From Escherichia phage vB_EcoM_PTE-Eco09: a DNA stretch of 64,000 nucleotides. Each line of letters starts with the position of its first letter. The first letter of the stretch is position 1. Below are positions 32,130 to 40,452 of the stretch, piece after piece. Position numbers and translations under genes: made by a program. A model generated the notes under the pieces. That model saw only the letters and a program-made list of their open reading frames with translations. It had not been told where the DNA came from and did no database searches. The stretch lies in the sequence record PQ306574.1; one strand, written 5' to 3'.

Positions 32130-33612
32130 TATCATTAATCAGCTTGCAGCAACAGACAAAACATCGCTGAAAGAAAAGATTCTGAAAGAATCAGCAAGCA
32201 ATGAAACGCTGAAAGAATGCTTTTATCTGGCATATTGCAAACAGGTTACGTTTGGCGTAAAGAAATACGATAAACCGTCTCGCTATTCGTCTGTATTGTC
32301 TTTATCCGGTGCATTACAGGTCTTTAAAAATAAACTTGCCACGCGTCAAGTAACTGGTAATGCAGCATTACAACTAGTTACCGATACTCTGACTTGCTTG
32401 TCAGAGGATGATGCTAAAGTTGCAATGATGGTCCTGAATCGTGATCTGGAATGCGGCTGTTCCGCTACCACTGCAAACAAGGTATGGAAGAAACTGATCC
32501 CCCAGCAACCGTGCCACCTTGCATCGTCATGTTCTGATAAGACTATTGCTAATATCAAGTATCCGGCGTATGCACAACTTAAAAGCGATGGCGCTCGTGG
32601 TATGGCTGATATTGACGGGGAAACATTAGCAATCTATACCCGCTCAGGTAATACCTATCAAGGGCTTGATGATTTGTTTGCGGTTTTAGAGCGTCTACGA
32701 GGCCGTGGAATTGTTCTAGATGGCGAATTGGTATATATGCCTACCCTTTCGCAAACACCAGCGCAGAACTTCGTTGAAAGCGTTTATGATGGTACTCTGT
32801 CATGGATATTTGAAGAAGAGGAAATGCCATTAACGCCAGTAGCGGAAGCAGTGAAAGAATCCGTTGTTGCAGATCGTCAGACCGGAAATGGTATCCTCAA
32901 CAAATCACTTAAAGGAACTATTCCAAAAGAAGAAGCCCAATGTATTGTTTACACTGTCTGGGATGTTATCGACCGTGATGTGTATTACGGAAACGAGAAA
33001 GCAACGAAGCAATATAAAGATCGATTCGAAGAACTAAAACAGATTGTTGAAGAACTTAACGATCCTCGTGTTCAGATCATCGAAAACACTGTAGTTAACA
33101 ATATCGATGAAGCTCGCGAAGTATATCATCGTTATGTCAACATGGGCTTAGAAGGTATTATCCTTAAAAATTTACATGGTGTATTTGAAGATCGCCGTAG
33201 TAAAGATCAGGTTAAATTTAAAGAAGTGATTGACTTCGACGCGGAAATTGTTGATGTATATCCGCATAGTAAAGACCCCAATAAGGTAGGCGGTTTTACT
33301 GTCCGTAGTGCGTGCGGACGAATGATGACTAACACCGGATCGGGATTAACCGACACTACAACCGAAAAAGGTGATGATGGTATCGAACGTGTAATTCCGT
33401 TCGATCGTCGAAATGAACTCGACCGAGAAATGTTATGGGCTGACCGTCATAACCTGATTGGAAAAGTCATTGAGATGACATGCAACGGGTATATCCGCAG
33501 CAAATCACGTAAAGAAGATGAACCGGAGTTCTCTTTATTTCTCCCAATCATCAAACGTATTCGCTACGACAAGACCACTGCAAATACAGTAAAAGAGGTA
33601 TTCGATGTGTGA
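32116..33612 (+). CDS. 30: ATP-dependent DNA ligase
   Basis: Colinear with T4 DNA ligase (KQLKADGAR active-site lysine region, LDGELVY, NKSLKGTI-KEEAQC, NNIDEA, LEGIILKN, KFKEVID, PHRKDP-K-GGF, FLPI-R-R-DKT-ANT). Confidence 0.9.
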   Translation: MSILNIINQLAATDKTSLKEKILKESASNETLKECFYLAYCKQVTFGVKKYDKPSRYSSVLSLSGALQVFKNKLATRQVTGNAALQLVTDTLTCLSEDDAKVAMMVLNRDLECGCSATTANKVWKKLIPQQPCHLASSCSDKTIANIKYPAYAQLKSDGARGMADIDGETLAIYTRSGNTYQGLDDLFAVLERLRGRGIVLDGELVYMPTLSQTPAQNFVESVYDGTLSWIFEEEEMPLTPVAEAVKESVVADRQTGNGILNKSLKGTIPKEEAQCIVYTVWDVIDRDVYYGNEKATKQYKDRFEELKQIVEELNDPRVQIIENTVVNNIDEAREVYHRYVNMGLEGIILKNLHGVFEDRRSKDQVKFKEVIDFDAEIVDVYPHSKDPNKVGGFTVRSACGRMMTNTGSGLTDTTTEKGDDGIERVIPFDRRNELDREMLWADRHNLIGKVIEMTCNGYIRSKSRKEDEPEFSLFLPIIKRIRYDKTTANTVKEVFDV

Positions 33613-34081
33613 TAATGAAGGGGCGAAAGCCCCTAAACCTAAAAAATTGTCAAAGAAAGAGCAACGCCAGATCCTGAAAATGAAATATGGTGGACGTTGT
33701 GCCTATTGTGGCGAGGAACTAGGGGATCGCTGGCACGCGGACCACATCAAACCAGTATTGCGACGCTCAAAGGTAGTCTATGATGAAAATGGACGAATTG
33801 CCCGTAATGATGATGGATCATGGAAATATAAGGTTGTAGGAATGCATAAACCGGAGCATGATATACTTGATAACATGAATCCGGCGTGTGTGCAATGCAA
33901 TCTTTATAAAAGCTGTATGGGCTTAGAATACTGGCGTAAGTGTATACGCGAGAACTTCCAGAAGTACATTCAGCGCAATATGGGATTGCGAGCGGCTAAA
34001 CGCTTTGGCTTGCTGTCAATCCACGACCAGCCAGTAGAATTTTATTTCGAAAAGTACGATCGCGAGCATCAAGAAAAATAA
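33605..34081 (+). CDS. HNH endonuclease-like protein
   Basis: CAYCG…HADHIKP…N…CVQCN arrangement; true start may be downstream of the GNRA hairpin at about 33621-33637. Confidence 0.6.
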   Translation: MCDNEGAKAPKPKKLSKKEQRQILKMKYGGRCAYCGEELGDRWHADHIKPVLRRSKVVYDENGRIARNDDGSWKYKVVGMHKPEHDILDNMNPACVQCNLYKSCMGLEYWRKCIRENFQKYIQRNMGLRAAKRFGLLSIHDQPVEFYFEKYDREHQEK

Positions 34082-34093
34082 TTCAAAAAGTTG

Positions 34094-34122
34094 TTGACAG
34101 GGGATCGGTGATCCCCTATACT
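34094..34122 (+). promoter_or_regulatory. PeSL-like element (promoter with palindromic spacer)
   Basis: TTGACA-GGGGATCGGTGATCCCC-TATACT; leader ACACAC-ATCAAAACGA…GGAGAATCAAAAATG. Confidence 0.55.
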
Positions 34123-34167
34123 ACACACATCAAAACGAAACACACTTTCTTAAACGGAGAATCAAAA

Positions 34168-34479
34168 ATGAAATACATCGTAACGCTGCCAATGATTGAC
34201 TTCGACGGAACCATGAACACCCAGAAGACCATGAGCGCGGAGAACCAACTGAAAAACGCTACCCTGATTCGTGAAGTTCGCAAGGCACTGGCAAAAGAAT
34301 TTAACACCAAAATTCATTCTGTAACTGGCGAACGTTTCGCGGATCATCTTGATATCAACATCAAACCAGTGCGCAACGGTGTTATCTCTGTAACAACCAG
34401 CCGCCCACATGCTGACGCTGATAATCTGACCGCTCGCGCAGAAGATGTAATTATGACCGTTATCATGGAAAAACTTTAA
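34168..34479 (+). CDS. hypothetical protein (103 aa); paralog of ORF 36360-36647
   Basis: Shares AKEFN-K block with 36360 ORF (REVRKALAKEFNTKI vs VRDAVAKEFNFKF). Confidence 0.5.
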   Translation: MKYIVTLPMIDFDGTMNTQKTMSAENQLKNATLIREVRKALAKEFNTKIHSVTGERFADHLDINIKPVRNGVISVTTSRPHADADNLTARAEDVIMTVIMEKL

Positions 34480-34487
34480 AAAAGTTG

Positions 34488-34516
34488 TTGACAGGGGATC
34501 ACCGATCCCCTATACT
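34488..34516 (+). promoter_or_regulatory. PeSL-like element
   Basis: TTGACA-GGGGATCACCGATCCCC-TATACT; spacer palindrome kept with its centre inverted relative to 34100. Confidence 0.55.
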
Positions 34517-34550
34517 ACACACATACCAACGAGATATAGGAGAATCAAAA

Positions 34551-34718
34551 ATGTTCCAGACTAAAGCAGAATGCGAAGCATACATTGTAGCAAACCACGG
34601 CGAAGATTATCTGAAATTTGACATTGTAGTAGCACAGAAGATCACCGGAATGGTTGCAAAATATCTGGGTGTTAAAGAAGGTTACTATCCGAGCAACGCA
34701 CCGGAAATCAACAAATAA
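34551..34718 (+). CDS. hypothetical small protein (55 aa); duplicated at 37835-38002
   Basis: MFQTKAECEAYIVANHGEDYLKFDIVVAQKITGMVAKYLGVKEGYYPSNAPEINK; near-identical second copy. Confidence 0.55.
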   Translation: MFQTKAECEAYIVANHGEDYLKFDIVVAQKITGMVAKYLGVKEGYYPSNAPEINK

Positions 34719-34721
34719 TAG

Positions 34722-34756
34722 TTGACAATGATTAAAGGGAGTAGTAAGATACTCCC
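34722..34756 (+). promoter_or_regulatory. PeSL-like element
   Basis: TTGACA-N17-TAAGAT; inverted repeat GGGAGTA/TACTCCC. Confidence 0.55.
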
Positions 34757-34782
34757 ATCAAGACAACAAACGGAGAATCAAA

Positions 34783-34962
34783 ATGAAAGCTATCGAAGTT
34801 CAGAAGTACATGGAAATCATCGTTGAAGGTAAAGCACATACAGTATTGACTACCCACGTAGGATATGATAAAAATGTGCATATGCTGGTAGACAATATCG
34901 GCTGGATGAAGTTTAATCCTAACGAGAACGTACAAGCTCAAGAAATGACCATCCCTTTCTAA
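34783..34962 (+). CDS. hypothetical small protein (59 aa)
   Basis: MKAIEVQKYMEIIVEGKAH…; hand-derived. Confidence 0.4.
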   Translation: MKAIEVQKYMEIIVEGKAHTVLTTHVGYDKNVHMLVDNIGWMKFNPNENVQAQEMTIPF

Positions 34963-34974
34963 GAGGAATATATT

Positions 34975-35253
34975 ATGATGCGAATTACTGCAACGCTGGA
35001 TAAGACACACAAAGAAAGATTTTTCGGTATGATCTTAAAAACGCCGATTTTCGATAATTACCTTTATGTTGACTATGAAGGTCACATTAGCTATAAATGT
35101 AAAAATGATATTCGTGATTCCTTTGGTGATAAATCACAATCTGATATTCATGACCACTGGTGGAACCATGACGAACCTTTACGAGTTATCGCAGTTGATG
35201 TAAAAACAACAAAAGAAGCTGATAAGGTAGTGAATGATTATGAGCAAATTTAA
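34975..35253 (+). CDS. hypothetical protein, paralog family A member 1
   Basis: Y-Y-D block, His-rich HDHWW motif and VIAVDV block shared with ORFs 35677, 36000, 36701. Confidence 0.5.
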   Translation: MMRITATLDKTHKERFFGMILKTPIFDNYLYVDYEGHISYKCKNDIRDSFGDKSQSDIHDHWWNHDEPLRVIAVDVKTTKEADKVVNDYEQI

Positions 35254-35497
35254 AGAATACAAAGCATATCAACAGATCCTGCGAGTATACGCACCAGAGT
35301 TCGCCGAAAAGATGATGGAAGATGCATCAAAATGCCCGTCCTTTTCTGGAAACAAAAACCATTATTCTACTCGTATTGTATCATGGAAAGAAACATGCTA
35401 CACTCAACAGTGGATAAACGTTTTCTCAAAAACAATTGGTTGGAATGGTGTTAATTATGGGTATTCAGAGTCAATTCAAAGATTATCGAGTGTATAA
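35234..35497 (+). CDS. hypothetical protein, paralog family B member 1
   Basis: F-EYKAY…AEKMMEDASKCPSF…IVSWKET shared with next ORF. Confidence 0.5.
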   Translation: MIMSKFKEYKAYQQILRVYAPEFAEKMMEDASKCPSFSGNKNHYSTRIVSWKETCYTQQWINVFSKTIGWNGVNYGYSESIQRLSSV

Positions 35498-35675
35498 AGA
35501 AATCTGTGCTGTATTTGATGAGAAAACAGCAGATAAAATGATGAAAGAAGCGTCACAATGTTCATCTTTTGTTGATAACAAAGATTTAAGAGTAAATGAG
35601 ATCGTGTGCTGGAGCGACACGAAACATGAAATTGTATGGCGTACCGTGTACTATAGCCGCGACCGAGGATTATAA
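35457..35675 (+). CDS. hypothetical protein, paralog family B member 2
   Basis: FKDYRVY…ADKMMKEASQCSSF…IVCWSDT; tandem paralog. Confidence 0.45.
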   Translation: MGIQSQFKDYRVYKEICAVFDEKTADKMMKEASQCSSFVDNKDLRVNEIVCWSDTKHEIVWRTVYYSRDRGL

Positions 35676-35676
35676 A

Positions 35677-35985
35677 ATGAAATTAACTAAAAAGATTTTC
35701 CCAGAATTGCGTAACTGTCTGTTACTGGTTACTGAATATAAGCCGTATACGATCTACTTGTACGTTGATGAAAATCTGAAAATCCGTTACTATGATTATA
35801 CGTCTCCAGTGATGCAATCATTTTCTCACTCGATAGCAAATAACTGTATGAATCACAATCATTGGGTATCAAAAACGGATGACGATGCGTCAGAAGTTGT
35901 AGTGGTTGCATGGAATCTATCACCAGCGGAAGCAGATCAAGCACGCATTCAGCATTACGCGAAAAACAACGGTCAAACTTTATAA
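35677..35985 (+). CDS. hypothetical protein, paralog family A member 2
   Basis: YTIYLYVDENLKIRYYDY…NHNHW…VVVVAW. Confidence 0.45.
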   Translation: MKLTKKIFPELRNCLLLVTEYKPYTIYLYVDENLKIRYYDYTSPVMQSFSHSIANNCMNHNHWVSKTDDDASEVVVVAWNLSPAEADQARIQHYAKNNGQTL

Positions 35986-35999
35986 GTGAGGAAAATATT

Positions 36000-36278
36000 A
36001 TGTTCAAAGTAGGTGATAAGTTTATTCTTAGTCGTGATATTCTCCCTAATCTGAAAGGTTGTATCATCAATCCTAGTAAAAATTCATGGTTTTATCTGTT
36101 TATCGACGACAAACTGAATGTACGCGCAGAATATAAAGAAGGTCTTCGTACTGGTCTAGGTTTCTTTCACGATCATGATCATAGCCATTGGCTAAACGGT
36201 GGATTCGAAGCAACGGTGCTAGCGGTTGATGTGACTTACACGAACATCATAGAAAAATATCAAAAAATTATTTTATAA
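36000..36278 (+). CDS. hypothetical protein, paralog family A member 3
   Basis: FYLFIDDKLNVRAEY…HDHDHSHW…VLAVDV. Confidence 0.45.
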   Translation: MFKVGDKFILSRDILPNLKGCIINPSKNSWFYLFIDDKLNVRAEYKEGLRTGLGFFHDHDHSHWLNGGFEATVLAVDVTYTNIIEKYQKIIL

Positions 36279-36284
36279 AAAGTA

Positions 36285-36318
36285 TTGACACCGGATCGGG
36301 GATATAGCATAATATCCC
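36285..36318 (+). promoter_or_regulatory. PeSL-like element
   Basis: TTGACA-N17-CATAAT; inverted repeat GGGGATAT/ATATCCCC around -10; ATCGAAACGAGATACACTTTC leader. Confidence 0.55.
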
Positions 36319-36359
36319 CATCGAAACGAGATACACTTTCTAACTAGGAGAATCAAATT

Positions 36360-36647
36360 ATGGCATACATTACTATCACTCTGAAAGTTAACAAATTCGC
36401 TCACGCTGCACACGAAACCGATAATGCAATCCGTAACAACAAGTTCGCACGTCTGGTACGCGATGCGGTAGCTAAAGAGTTCAACTTCAAATTTGCAGAT
36501 GGTAAAGTTATCACTAAATGGACTCATGACGGCGAAACTAAAGTAGAACTTGCTGATAACTTCGCAAATCAGGAATATGCACACCGTCGCATTAATGAAA
36601 TTATCAGCGATGAACTCTACTACGGTGTACAGGAAGGACTGTTTTAA
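36360..36647 (+). CDS. hypothetical protein (95 aa); paralog of ORF 34168-34479
   Basis: ATG ORF behind PeSL; shared AKEFN block. Confidence 0.5.
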   Translation: MAYITITLKVNKFAHAAHETDNAIRNNKFARLVRDAVAKEFNFKFADGKVITKWTHDGETKVELADNFANQEYAHRRINEIISDELYYGVQEGLF

Positions 36648-36652
36648 TATAC

Positions 36653-36676
36653 GGGGCGTTAAGCCCCACCCCTTTT
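36653..36676 (+). terminator. terminator-like hairpin
   Basis: GGGGC-GTTAA-GCCCC then CCCCTTTT; same hairpin sequence recurs at 40433. Confidence 0.5.
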
Positions 36677-36700
36677 CATCCAACTATTGAGGATAATACT

Positions 36701-37009
36701 ATGAAAGATAATATCTTTGAATTTACCCGCGAAAATCTCCCAATGTTCCGAAAGTCTCTGCTTAAACTAGAGAACAGTAATTATGATGTATATTTTTACA
36801 TCACCGAAGACCTAGAGATCCTTTACGCAGATTATCCAGGTCCGATCCGTACCTTCGAAGAAGCATCGCAGTATAAAAATGTTCACGGTCATGAGCACTG
36901 GTTACGAGAAAACCCAGGTCGCAAGAAAGCACGCGTTAAAGTGATTGCGATTGACGTAACACCAGCATACGCCGACCGGATTGCACTGAATGATTATTTG
37001 TCTAAATGA
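36701..37009 (+). CDS. hypothetical protein, paralog family A member 4
   Basis: YDVYFYITEDLEILYADY…HGHEHW…VIAIDV. Confidence 0.5.
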   Translation: MKDNIFEFTRENLPMFRKSLLKLENSNYDVYFYITEDLEILYADYPGPIRTFEEASQYKNVHGHEHWLRENPGRKKARVKVIAIDVTPAYADRIALNDYLSK

Positions 37010-37016
37010 TTTTATT

Positions 37017-37042
37017 AGCCGACCTTAGTGTCGGCTTTTTTA
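37017..37042 (+). terminator. rho-independent terminator
   Basis: AGCCGAC-CTTAGT-GTCGGCT followed by TTTTTT. Confidence 0.6.
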
Positions 37043-37065
37043 TTGCATAAAATTTTAAAAAAGTT

Positions 37066-37094
37066 GTTGACACCAGATCACGCCTATAGCATAA
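37066..37094 (+). promoter_or_regulatory. early promoter with conserved leader
   Basis: TTGACA-N17-CATAAT-ACACCC-ATCGAAACGAGATACCACTTAGGAGAATCAAACAATG. Confidence 0.5.
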
Positions 37095-37135
37095 TACACC
37101 CATCGAAACGAGATACCACTTAGGAGAATCAAACA

Positions 37136-37405
37136 ATGGCGCTGACTAAAACCACTACCAACTTTGCAAAACGTCACGGCTTCGACCTTGAAATCAATAG
37201 CTTTAACGATTACACCCTTCTGTGTGTATATGAAATCGAAAATGATTGCGAGTGGATGTTCAGCTATCGCGTAAACGAAGACGGATCTTTCACTTGGAAC
37301 GGAAATATCTATCTTGCACAGGAAGTAAAAGAAGAACTACCGGCGACTATCAAAGATGAGAAGCATTTACGTCAAGTTTTAAAATTTATTTCTGAAAATA
37401 TCTAA
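37136..37405 (+). CDS. hypothetical protein (89 aa)
   Basis: ATG ORF behind promoter cassette. Confidence 0.5.
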   Translation: MALTKTTTNFAKRHGFDLEINSFNDYTLLCVYEIENDCEWMFSYRVNEDGSFTWNGNIYLAQEVKEELPATIKDEKHLRQVLKFISENI

Positions 37406-37413
37406 AAAAGTTG

Positions 37414-37442
37414 TTGACACCAAAGTAAGAACATAGCATAAT
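37414..37442 (+). promoter_or_regulatory. early promoter with conserved leader
   Basis: TTGACA-N17-CATAAT-ACACAC-ATACCGAAACGA. Confidence 0.5.
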
Positions 37443-37475
37443 ACACACATACCGAAACGAACTGGAGAATCAAAA

Positions 37476-37757
37476 ATGAAATTCATCAAAGCAACCGAAA
37501 TCCTGAAAAACAAAGAAGCATACATCGGAAACATCGTTGGTATGAACATTCGCGGCGCTGGTAGCCAGTGGACCAAACTGGTTGATGTTAAAGCTAAAGG
37601 CGATAAAATTGAGTTCACTGTAAAAATGCTTACTCATAACGCACATATGGGTATCAAGACAAAAACGATGGCAGCAGATAAAAGCATCAACTATCAGGAT
37701 CTGGGCGATTGGCTGAACTGGTGCAAAATACACAACATCGAAACTAATCACGAATAA
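37476..37757 (+). CDS. hypothetical protein (93 aa)
   Basis: ATG ORF behind promoter cassette. Confidence 0.5.
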   Translation: MKFIKATEILKNKEAYIGNIVGMNIRGAGSQWTKLVDVKAKGDKIEFTVKMLTHNAHMGIKTKTMAADKSINYQDLGDWLNWCKIHNIETNHE

Positions 37758-37771
37758 TTTTAAAAAAGTTG

Positions 37772-37800
37772 TTGACGGGGATCGGGAGATCCCCTATAAT
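37772..37800 (+). promoter_or_regulatory. PeSL-like element
   Basis: TTGACG-GGGATCGGGAGATCCCC-TATAAT; palindromic spacer. Confidence 0.55.
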
Positions 37801-37834
37801 GCACACATACCAACGAGATATAGGAGAATCAAAA

Positions 37835-38002
37835 ATGTTCCAGACTAAAGCAGAATGCGAAGCATATATCATTGAAACCCACGGCGAAGATTATCTGAAA
37901 TTTGACATTGTAGTAGCACAGAAGATTGTAGGGATGGTTGCGAAATACCTCGGAGTTAAAGAAGGTTACTATCCTAGCAACGCACCAGAAATTAACAAAT
38001 AA
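37835..38002 (+). CDS. hypothetical small protein (55 aa); second copy of ORF 34551-34718
   Basis: MFQTKAECEAYIIETHGEDYLKFDIVVAQKIVGMVAKYLGVKEGYYPSNAPEINK; 3 aa differences from first copy. Confidence 0.55.
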   Translation: MFQTKAECEAYIIETHGEDYLKFDIVVAQKIVGMVAKYLGVKEGYYPSNAPEINK

Positions 38003-38015
38003 TTTTATAAAAAGT

Positions 38016-38044
38016 GTTGACAGGGGAGGATAACTCCCCTACAA
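38016..38044 (+). promoter_or_regulatory. PeSL-like element
   Basis: TTGACA-GGGGAGGATAACTCCCC-TACAAT; then ACAACC-ATCAAGACGAGATACCACTTAGGAGAATCAAACAATG. Confidence 0.55.
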
Positions 38045-38085
38045 TACAACCATCAAGACGAGATACCACTTAGGAGAATCAAACA

Positions 38086-38337
38086 ATGGCTAACATCGAA
38101 ACCGCAAAGAAAATCGCTAAAGACCTGAACGTTAAAGGCTTCCGTAAACTGAAATTACAGCGTGTACGCTACACCATCGGCAAACAGTGCTCTTTCATGA
38201 GCGAAGAAGTTGCTAACAGCCTGATTGATAACCTGATTGCGGCTGGCTGGGAAGTTGCGGATCTGAAAACTTGCCGCGAACTGGCTAAAAAAGGTCTTTT
38301 AGATTCTGTTACTATCAAACCAATGGGGGCAGCGTGA
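38086..38337 (+). CDS. hypothetical protein (83 aa)
   Basis: ATG ORF behind PeSL; first codons MANIE shared with ORF 40214. Confidence 0.5.
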   Translation: MANIETAKKIAKDLNVKGFRKLKLQRVRYTIGKQCSFMSEEVANSLIDNLIAAGWEVADLKTCRELAKKGLLDSVTIKPMGAA

Positions 38338-38579
38338 AAAGAAAATTAATTAAACGCAATAAGGAATTTCTTAATAACTGCATTAAGGCCGCTAATGGTT
38401 GGCCTTTGTGCCTCTTCCTTTATGATTGGTATTCTAAACAATCAGTTGAGGAAGCACGACACTATAAGAAGATCAGAAAAGAATCACACACAAAACAAGG
38501 TCGCATTAACGGACTTTACTTAATGTGGCACGGTAAAGAACCGACTAAAATCTGTGCTGGGTTAAAGGGTCGTATATGA
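38334..38579 (+). CDS. hypothetical basic protein (81 aa); first gene of coupled four-gene module
   Basis: Start overlaps upstream stop; stop overlaps next start. Confidence 0.45.
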   Translation: MKRKLIKRNKEFLNNCIKAANGWPLCLFLYDWYSKQSVEEARHYKKIRKESHTKQGRINGLYLMWHGKEPTKICAGLKGRI

Positions 38580-39292
38580 AACAAAAATTAATATTCTGCA
38601 ACTTTGACGGATCGGGAATAATGGGGCTAGAATGGGCTAAAGCAGGTCATAAGGTAGTCTGCTTTAATGCGGATGACGCCGACCACGGTACATACAAAAA
38701 GTATAATACCAGATTTGAACATCCAAACATTACCTATGTAAACACATGGATTGATTTGAATTGGCTGGAAAGAGCAATGGACCTTGAATGGGGGAAACCG
38801 GATATTATCTTTGCATTCCCACCGTGCACCAATTTAGCTGTTAGTGGCGCTGCGCACTTTGAACGAAAGAAACTAGAACAAGGACCATTGATTCAAGTTC
38901 ATGATGTAAGGGCAGCTAAAATAACCGCTTATTTGGGTGAATGGCTAGGAGTTCCCTACATGATAGAGAATCCTGTAAGCGTTATCTCTAGTATGTGGCG
39001 TAAGCCTGATTACATGTTCCATCCGTGGGAATATGGCGGTTATTTGCCGGAAGATGATAAACATCCTACTTTTCCTGAGTATATCGCCGCCCGTGATATG
39101 TACCCGAAAAAGACTTGCTTATGGACCGGACAAGGCTTTATAATGCCAGAAAAGAAACCGTTGCAGATTAATAAAGGGTACAGTAAACAGCATTCTAAGC
39201 TAGGCGGGAAAGGAACGAAAACAAAGACTATCAGGTCACTTACCCCGCGAGGATTCGCAAAGGCAGTATTTGAAGCCAATAAGGATCTATGA
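38576..39292 (+). CDS. DNA C5-cytosine methyltransferase-like protein (minimal, 238 aa)
   Basis: Motif order and spacing of C5-MTase catalytic domain: FDGSGIMG (motif I-like), AFPPC (PCQ-like with Cys), IENPV (ENV-like); too short for a canonical target recognition domain. Confidence 0.45.
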   Translation: MKQKLIFCNFDGSGIMGLEWAKAGHKVVCFNADDADHGTYKKYNTRFEHPNITYVNTWIDLNWLERAMDLEWGKPDIIFAFPPCTNLAVSGAAHFERKKLEQGPLIQVHDVRAAKITAYLGEWLGVPYMIENPVSVISSMWRKPDYMFHPWEYGGYLPEDDKHPTFPEYIAARDMYPKKTCLWTGQGFIMPEKKPLQINKGYSKQHSKLGGKGTKTKTIRSLTPRGFAKAVFEANKDL

Positions 39293-39622: not shown

Positions 39623-40141
39623 ATGAACCGTTTAACGCCTAAACGCCGTTACTATACCAATACTAAAAACTTTGTCATCTCTGTTTATGATGCATGGTTA
39701 GAAGATGGCTATATCAACATGAACCCAGATTATCAGCGTCCTTTAGTATGGGACACCGAAAACAAACGTATGTTTATTGAAAACCTGATTAATGATTTTC
39801 CGGTTGGTGCTATCGCAATGGCTAAGATTGATGATGGCTCTCGCTATGAGATCGAAATCGTGGACGGTAAACAGCGTTTAAACGCAATATTCTCCTTTAT
39901 GAAGGATGAGTTTAGCATTGCTTGTAATGATGATTCTATGTTGTATTACAGTGATTTTACGCCAGCAGAAAAGCGACGTTTCCGAAATCTCGGACTACCC
40001 GCGATCATGATGGAAGAGAGCACACGAGAAGACCGATTAGAGTATTTCTACAAAACAAACTTTTTCGGTGTACCTCAATCGGAAGAACATCGCCAGCATG
40101 TGATTGCATTATTGCAAGATGAACAATTAAAAAATAACTAA
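39623..40141 (+). CDS. DUF262 / ParB-like domain protein (about 172 aa) without nuclease domain
   Basis: DYQRPLVW and EIVDGKQRLNAI resemble DUF262 signatures (FQRxxVW, DGQQR) of GmrSD-type N-terminal domains; start at ATG after GGAG. Confidence 0.45.
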   Translation: MNRLTPKRRYYTNTKNFVISVYDAWLEDGYINMNPDYQRPLVWDTENKRMFIENLINDFPVGAIAMAKIDDGSRYEIEIVDGKQRLNAIFSFMKDEFSIACNDDSMLYYSDFTPAEKRRFRNLGLPAIMMEESTREDRLEYFYKTNFFGVPQSEEHRQHVIALLQDEQLKNN

Positions 40142-40148
40142 AAAGTTG

Positions 40149-40177
40149 TTGACAGGGGATCGGTGATCCCCTATAAT
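40149..40177 (+). promoter_or_regulatory. PeSL-like element
   Basis: TTGACA-GGGGATCGGTGATCCCC-TATAAT; same spacer palindrome as at 34100. Confidence 0.55.
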
Positions 40178-40213: not shown

Positions 40214-40426
40214 ATGGCTAACATCGAAATCATCATTACCGACGTAACTTATGACCGCATTAACGAAATCGGTACTGCATTACTGGAAGATGGAACAACT
40301 CGTACCATCAACTACGCAGAATACGTTGAAATGCGTGGTTGTATTAAACGAGTAGGAAAATATATCCTGATTGAAAAAGACTATTCAGGATACACCTTAG
40401 AGCAATTGCTTGATGGTGCATTATAA
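40214..40426 (+). CDS. hypothetical protein (70 aa)
   Basis: ATG ORF (MANIEIIITDV…) behind PeSL. Confidence 0.5.
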   Translation: MANIEIIITDVTYDRINEIGTALLEDGTTRTINYAEYVEMRGCIKRVGKYILIEKDYSGYTLEQLLDGAL

Positions 40427-40432
40427 TAAAAA

Positions 40433-40452
40433 GGGGCGTTAAGCCCCGTTTT
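40433..40452 (+). terminator. terminator-like hairpin
   Basis: GGGGC-GTTAA-GCCCC then GTTTTC; same hairpin as at 36653. Confidence 0.5.

Follow-up and report, generated by a model that had tools for sequence, protein, structure and literature searches.

Paralogous promoter-early stem-loop cassettes and their probable role in deletion and reshuffling of early genes in Krischvirus phages

The promoter-early stem-loop (PeSL) was defined in phages RB49 and phi1 by Arbiol, Comeau, Kutateladze, Adamia and Krisch (2010, Genome Biol Evol 2:140; PMC2839356). Its parts are an AT-rich tract, consensus σ70 boxes, a G/C stem-loop that lies mostly between these boxes, and the Shine-Dalgarno sequence and ATG of an ORFan. 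About 50 are found per genome in RB49 and phi1, mainly in hyperplastic regions. PeSL206/205, cloned as the promoter of a lacZ fusion, yielded ~13,000 Miller units, and terminator activity was demonstrated for the PeSL211/210 stem-loop only (PMC2839356). The same authors proposed that recombination between PeSLs excises or inserts cassettes, and their mini-circle model is explicitly reversible. By inverse polymerase chain reaction (PCR), circles were detected that carried open reading frames (ORFs) 192-193, ORF191-194 ('band H') and also ORF210, and the mini-circle crossovers mapped within PeSLs, between the -10 box and the ATG (PMC2839356). In this study, we have analyzed two such cassettes, here called copy A and copy B and each formed of a PeSL and a 55-codon gene, in a 64,000-nucleotide (nt) stretch of Escherichia phage vB_EcoM_PTE-Eco09 (PQ306574.1), referred to below as the window.

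The window is from a Krischvirus, an RB49-like T4-type coliphage (Straboviridae). Fifty-eight Krischvirus records match the 4.4-kb region at 93-99% identity, with FL15 the closest over 3.9 kb (99.2%). The locus is a variable early-gene region flanked by DNA ligase (gene 30, ORF213) and alt (ORF184). Mapping against RB49 and Phi1 placed the window's ORFs one-to-one, and in order, onto RB49 ORF213-184, with copy A corresponding to ORF205 and copy B to ORF191, the gene inside band H. Taken together, our analyses make it probable (about 85%) that copies A and B are old paralogs within an array of PeSL-plus-ORFan cassettes, and that recombination between them deletes and reshuffles the genes of the interval.

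The kind of element and its behavior in this very region were already known, and the locus is an ordinary example of the published mechanism. The RB49 and phi1 cassettes come from the same genus and the same region (HPR3, ORF184-213) and have the same anatomy; the cassette of copy A is a homolog of the cloned PeSL206/205, and the hybrid-junction deletions described below fall in zones mapped in that work (AT-rich tract, loop, and -10 to ATG). Going beyond it, from a larger genome set, are the deletion of the whole ORF204-193 block and the conversion and paralogy of ORF205 and ORF191. This paralogy is unmentioned in the text of Arbiol et al., from which the terms 'paralog' and 'gene conversion' are absent (PMC2839356). 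As described in a later paper, the PeSLs of T4/PST and KVP40/nt-1 embody the same concept, that of composite promoter/terminator exchange points in hyperplastic regions, in other phage lineages and with other motif sequences (Comeau, Arbiol and Krisch 2014; PMC4122927). Similar to the morons of lambdoid phages, which have their own promoter and terminator, each unit here is an autonomous transcription unit with one small accessory gene; however, in the Krischvirus locus the conserved promoter cassette is itself the recombination substrate. Integron gene cassettes also form arrays of small exchangeable single-gene units able to exist as circles. In contrast to integrons, the Krischvirus locus has no integrase and no attC/attI, relies on general homologous recombination and provides each cassette with its own promoter.

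Copies A and B are direct repeats on the + strand, as the earlier note on this sequence had proposed, with an offset of 3284 nt. That note described them as a near-identical ~230-bp pair 3.3 kb apart, but the repeat search returned only 216 nt at 91% identity (34504-34719 versus 37788-38003), a similarity that far exceeds chance. The bounds it gave for the cassettes, 34485-34718 and 37769-38002, belong instead to a mechanical 77-codon ORF opening at a TTG that overlaps the -35 box. In the offset-3284 register, the coding sequences (CDS) are identical at 150 of 168 positions (89.3%), the stretch from -10 to ATG at 45 of 47, and the AT-rich tract, -35 box and spacer at 24 of 34; identity falls to 30% further upstream and to 45% past the stop codon. 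A MAFFT alignment of the copies with their flanks, used to see where similarity starts and stops, placed its limits at the stop codon on the 3′ side and in the AT-rich tract upstream of the -35 box on the 5′ side. The longest perfect tracts, 65 nt (34518-34582) and 48 nt (34595-34642), are mostly or wholly coding. Where three amino-acid differences had been counted, alignment of the two proteins gives four (V13I, A14E, N15T and T32V), leaving 51 of 55 residues identical. Positions of these and the surrounding features are collected in Table 1.

Table 1. Features of the two-copy locus, in window coordinates.
Feature	Position	Strand	Description
Copy A of the 55-codon gene	34551..34718 (ATG to stop)	+	Ortholog of RB49 ORF205 (RB49p205) by synteny and 94.6% nt identity; PHROG 8009
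Copy B of the 55-codon gene	37835..38002 (ATG to stop)	+	Ortholog of RB49 ORF191 (RB49p191); 97.6-98.2% nt identity to RB49 and FL15 copy B
PeSL upstream of copy A	34470..34550	+	AT-rich tract, promoter, palindromic spacer, conserved leader, GGAG Shine-Dalgarno (about 34538-34542)
PeSL upstream of copy B (PeSL193/191 type)	37754..37834	+	AT-rich tract, promoter, B-type spacer, A-type leader
Ten small early ORFs between the copies	34783..37757	+	Homologs of RB49 ORF204-197, 194 and 193
Internal PeSL-type promoters	34722-34750, 36285-36313, 37067-37095, 37414-37442	+	From promoter scan
Left flank, ORF210 homolog (phrog_7474)	34168..34479	+	98-99% identical to ORF210 homologs over 312 nt; abuts copy A
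Right flank, PeSL191/190 and ORF190 homolog	38009..38337	+	Promoter TTGACA-17-TACAAT at 38017-38045; ORF190 homolog 38086-38337
HNH endonuclease ORF	33605-34081		About 0.5 kb upstream of copy A

Both copies are preceded by σ70 hexamers, an upstream AT-rich tract and a stem-loop in the spacer, and both take part in hybrid-cassette insertions and deletions, as PeSLs do. The cassettes are intergenic and lie in a hyperplastic region, directly upstream of ORFans, i.e., genes that match only PHROGs of unknown function. The copy A promoter is TTGACA-17-TATACT at 34488-34516 (-35 at 34488-34493, -10 at 34511-34516) and that of copy B is TTGACG-17-TATAAT at 37772-37800 (-35 at 37772-37777, -10 at 37795-37800); each scored 11/12 in a promoter scan. 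The claim that the two genes stand behind the same palindromic promoter cassette was right in that both have a near-consensus promoter with a 17-nt palindromic spacer, but the spacers themselves differ, GGGGATCACCGATCCCC (34494-34510) in copy A versus GGGATCGGGAGATCCCC (37778-37794) in copy B. Within the spacer, copy A has a GGGGATC/GATCCCC stem with a 3-nt loop (66-nt RNA, -14.5 kcal/mol, z = -3.15), and copy B has a GGGATC/GATCCC(C) stem with a 4-nt loop (66-nt RNA, -16.2 kcal/mol, z = -2.65). The ORF210 and ORF193 homologs have their stop codons inside the AT-rich tracts of copy A (...GGAAAAACTTTAAAAAAGTTGTTGACA) and copy B (...CACGAATAATTTTAAAAAAGTTGTTGACG), respectively. From AT-rich tract to ATG, the copy A cassette is the same as PeSL206/205 of MIZ4 and Phi1, save for one base deleted in Phi1, and strong early promoter activity, as published for PeSL206/205, is predicted for it.

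This type of promoter cassette is not special to the A/B pair, and at least 8 to 10 relatives are located within 34.0-40.2 kb. Ten + strand promoter sites there reach 10/12 or more. The spacer is 17 nt long in nine of these, among them each of the eight sites scoring 11 or 12. With at most two mismatches, the core AAAAGTTGTTGACA occurs 13 times in the window versus 1.24 expected, and 66-nt cassette RNAs with spacer hairpins fold at -14 to -19 kcal/mol. The palindromic 17-nt spacer also exists in two exact reverse-complement forms, GGGGATC-GGT-GATCCCC and GGGGATC-ACC-GATCCCC, as seen on comparing 34494-34510 with 34100-34116 and 40155-40171, and in PeSL206/205 of records L007 (RB49, NC_005066) and L008. 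Paralogous cassettes include both orientations, and so do orthologous ones from different phages (RB49 versus Phi1), a pattern that looks like hairpin inversion by strand switching.

Comparison with related genomes bore out the earlier suggestion that the locus is structurally polymorphic: spacing classes, one-copy variants and conversion patches were all found. By blastn with the gene, two copies are present in 51 of the 58 Krischvirus records, at a spacing of 3.25 to 4.33 kb. The start-to-start distance is 3254-3284 nt in 27 genomes (window included), 3767-3810 nt in eight, 4318-4326 nt in RB49 and MIZ2/3/6, and 3381, 3479 or 3621 nt in one genome each. The remaining seven (Brandy, UPWr_E1, JK32, MIZ4, MIZ5, Cognac and FL04) have a single copy. 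Every Krischvirus record thus keeps at least one copy, and the copy kept may be of either type. The record OZ035808 is named Krischvirus RB49 and lacks ORF192. We considered laboratory excision of ORF192 between the two 'RB49' records and rejected it, as OZ035808 is only 97-98% identical to NC_005066 in this region and is a different isolate that carries the species name.

The deletion of the intervening ~3 kb, which the repeats had been predicted to mediate, is seen in Cognac and FL04 and in metagenome contigs L014/L016, L017 and L019, all without the interval and with hybrid cassettes. Cognac and FL04 have ORF206, a single hybrid 55-codon cassette and ORF190, and all genes between A and B are gone. 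Sites diagnostic of the A and B types were defined by alignment of 18 copies with their flanks. By these sites, the A context of FL04 gives way to B type at the -35/spacer boundary, and Cognac, with an A-type spacer and leader, is B-type by CDS nt 7, so that its switch lies between the leader and nt 7. These switch points differ, and the two deletions are independent events. In L014, L016, L017 and L019 the A-to-B switch lies between CDS nt 24 and 33, and whole-interval loss in one-copy genomes has switch points at at least three different places. L014 and L016 are 99.9% identical over 6.5 kb and come from different studies and assemblers. L015 equals L019 (100% over 971 nt) except for a PeSL-bounded ORF194-193 cassette between the single 55-codon gene and ORF190 (L015 2007-3213 versus L019 716-1008), which is a gain or loss of that cassette.

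The exact protein of window copy B was found on seven European Nucleotide Archive (ENA) metagenome contigs. Among the contigs, L013 is of the two-copy form and its copy B is the chimera seen in the window, and L018 has the gene in B context. L017, from the same study as L013, was considered as its direct deletion derivative. This was rejected, since the flanks are just 95.6-98.7% identical; the two are related, not parent and offspring.

Most rearrangements cross over in generic PeSL cassettes and not in the full 230-bp repeat, which qualifies the prediction above. Five records have lost copy B by PeSL-to-PeSL joins. In Brandy, UPWr_E1 and JK32, copy B alone was lost by PeSL193/191 x PeSL191/190, the 5′ part of the former being fused to the 3′ part of the latter between the -10 box and the Shine-Dalgarno sequence. 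In MIZ4, PeSL193/191 is joined to PeSL186/185 in the AT-rich/-35 part, with loss of ORF191-186. The window phage itself lacks homologs of ORF209-206 and ORF211 (34462-34550, a junction, and 34081-34168). Since ORF209-206 are missing, its ORF210 homolog is directly next to copy A; the two are joined by a hybrid PeSL210/209 x PeSL206/205, with the 3′ end of ORF210 as the upstream flank. This junction is not contained in one piece in any of the 58 Krischvirus records of the phage collection.

Our analysis also points to gene conversion between the copies. In window copy A, CDS nt 51-75 contains six B-type synonymous sites in a row, and the same patch is present in the single copy of Brandy. Window copy B is chimeric. 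Its B-type spacer is followed by an A-type leader, which sets it apart from copy B of RB49, Phi1 and FL15, and its CDS is A-type at nt 7, 20 and 24, the positions at which it differs from FL15 copy B. The protein is accordingly A-type at its start (Q3, E7) and B-type thereafter, and it is absent from the phage collection as an exact match (best match, 96.4%). An A-type patch near nt 114-141 is common to FL37 copy B and Cognac. The CDS identity of A and B is 84.5-86.3% in RB49, Phi1, FL15, FL37 and PHB13 and, because of the conversion patches in both copies, is raised to 89.3% in the window. The A and B types differ by ~15%, while orthologs differ by 2-5%, and they are otherwise kept as distinct alleles across the genus. 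This argues that the duplication is old and predates the sequenced diversity, and that the two window copies owe part of their similarity to later events.

Based upon these observations and the published work, we propose the following mechanism. On double-stranded DNA, each cassette would drive transcription by host RNA polymerase immediately after infection, and in transcripts arriving from upstream its palindrome would form a hairpin that attenuates read-through, which is its published role. Head-to-tail cassettes within a few kb would supply dispersed homologies of 50-100 nt, to which the A/B paralogy adds 168 nt. Since the cassettes are many and arranged head to tail, and the A/B homology reaches into the CDS, the very active homologous recombination of the phage would be expected to pair them out of register. 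The block that separates two cassettes could be deleted, giving a circle as by-product, or be inserted by the reverse reaction, and short patches of A/B gene conversion could also arise. The anatomy, the paralogy, the mosaic patches and the natural deletion/insertion variants with hybrid junctions are observed here; promoter activity of PeSL206/205, termination by the PeSL211/210 hairpin and mini-circles with ORF191-194 come from the literature (PMC2839356). We infer that the T4-type recombination machinery is the agent, as we do the direction of change and any role of the protein. The locus is a clear natural illustration of how accessory early genes are reshuffled in T4-type phages. In dozens of genomes, it displays recurrent deletions, cassette gain or loss and conversion at hybrid promoter cassettes, in the region where the PCR of 2010 found mini-circles, and so strengthens the existing model without opening a new one. 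In practical terms, the region is unstable in Krischvirus therapeutic phages, and short-read assemblies of it need care.

Several points weigh against this reading. The metagenome contigs could in principle have been mis-joined across the identical tract of 65-70 nt. Against such an origin, the identity tracts in which FL04 and Cognac switch are only ~20 nt long, too short for an assembler to collapse, and L014 and L016 agree although they come from two assemblers. Two cassettes of the interval, at 37049 and 37396, have no spacer hairpin. Where spacer hairpins are present, they lack a following U-run, and none was called terminator-like in a simple intrinsic-terminator scan; their putative attenuator role draws on one published construct with a different PeSL (PeSL211/210). 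The direction of change, deletion rather than insertion, is read from frequency, 51 of 58 records having two copies. The protein has no Pfam match at E ≤0.1. Its AlphaFold2 model (5-sequence alignment) has a mean predicted local distance difference test score (pLDDT) of 66.6, with two helices (residues 5-16 and 18-39) and a tail that is conserved although disordered; the model is too weak and too simple to make a fold search informative.

We also weighed other explanations of the locus. Generic PeSL cassettes could alone be the recombination sites, in which case the homology of the duplicated CDS would be incidental and add nothing to the instability. FL04 and Cognac, which switch upstream of the CDS or at its very start, fit such an explanation, as do the published crossovers within PeSLs (PMC2839356) and the copy-B-only, MIZ4 and window ORF209-206 deletions, which use PeSL pairs flanking unrelated genes. 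It is nevertheless unlikely, since the conversion patch at CDS nt 51-75 of window copy A and Brandy lies wholly inside the coding sequence, L014, L016, L017 and L019 switch at CDS nt 24-33 (if their parents were canonical), and the longest perfect tracts of the window are mostly or wholly coding. The opposite polarity, in which the one-copy arrangement (ORF206, gene, ORF190) is ancestral and the two-copy form arose by integration of a 3.3-kb circle with the interval and one copy, draws on the explicit reversibility of the mini-circle model and on the L015/L019 difference, which could be an insertion. We consider it distinctly improbable, because 51 of 58 records have two copies with distinct and conserved types, the ~15% divergence of A and B against 2-5% among orthologs places the duplication before the sequenced diversity, and at least three hybrid switch points on different flank backgrounds are better explained by recurrent deletion.

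Co-conversion of flanking markers is a known effect of homing endonucleases in T4-type phages, and an HNH endonuclease ORF stands ~0.5 kb upstream of copy A. Exchanges driven by this gene, through double-strand-break repair and co-conversion, are nonetheless highly unlikely: every junction examined is a hybrid, either of PeSLs or of the A/B genes, and none lies near the HNH gene, no target site is known for the enzyme, and the same kind of rearrangement has been published for PeSLs elsewhere in the genome (PMC2839356). As assemblers can duplicate or collapse repeats, the duplication might also be an assembly artefact in the window. This has virtually no chance of being correct and is refuted by 51 independent records, including RB49, Phi1 and JSE, in which both copies have their own diagnostic substitutions and unique flanks.

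With regard to the gene product, both copies match PHROG 8009 (unknown function) over residues 1-55 of 55 (E = 1.2e-38 and 3e-38). The exact A protein occurs on 257 contigs and the canonical B protein on 218, and 44 phage records have the A protein at 99% identity or more. In the loci examined, the A protein is unchanged although the DNA differs by about 5%, and this constancy points to a real gene under purifying selection. A word-indexed protein search returned five clusters. A HMMER profile search run exhaustively over 1.84 billion representatives gave two matches at E ≤1e-10 and nine at E ≤0.001, the latter including fragments and low-complexity matches in long proteins. The product would be a small helical early accessory protein, dispensable in part. 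Homologs at 66-68% amino-acid identity are present in unrelated siphoviruses of ~45-48 kb, namely Escherichia phage vB_EcoS_swi2 (2501-2656 of its record, L012), Salmonella phage SeSz-2 and Escherichia phage Bas81, with weaker matches in Solent, Henu8 and Bas82. Transfer of the PeSL to siphoviruses together with the gene was unsupported, as the swi2 homolog lies behind an ordinary promoter, TTGAAG-17-TAGAAT, with neither a G/C hairpin nor a PeSL leader.

Amino-acid differences between the types cluster at residues 3, 7, 13-15 and 32, and the rest of the protein is invariant. We can speculate, at low odds, that the A/B pair is a two-allele diversification module in which ectopic conversion yields new chimeric early proteins, such as Q3/E7 + IIET/V32, an allele found on seven metagenome contigs and in no other isolate. 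If true, the product could be a protein of host interaction or anti-defence, its specificity being reshuffled by the same cassette recombination and its gene occasionally transferred to siphoviruses (swi2, SeSz-2 and Bas81).

Paralogy is also evident among the genes between and around the copies. Four phrog_9345-like paralogs (34975, 35677, 36000 and 36701) share an H-x-H-W...AxDV motif, phrog_8471 genes lie in tandem at 35240 and 35457, and a phrog_7474 pair is found at 34168 and 36360. The spacer hairpin of PeSL191/190, GGGGAG..CTCCCC, folds at -19.4 kcal/mol (z = -4.8). The cassette leaders (34538-34542, 37822-37826 and others) share a conserved end with a GGAG Shine-Dalgarno sequence, TAGGAGAATCAAA. 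GGAG in the ribosome-binding sites of early mRNAs is the target of the T4-type RegB endoribonuclease. Canonical terminators, with a hairpin and a T-run, are located at 37017-37036, just upstream of the hairpin-less cassette at 37049, and at 40433-40447, just past a gene ending at 40426; the latter is terminator-like on both strands. Further downstream of copy B, the gene for a DNA methyltransferase homolog (38576-39292) is followed after 0.3 kb by that for a protein encoded at 39623-40141, and the block with both genes (ORF191-186) is gone from MIZ4/MIZ5. Orthologs of the 39623-40141 protein in L013-L015 carry precomputed Pfam matches to GmrSD_N (PF03235).

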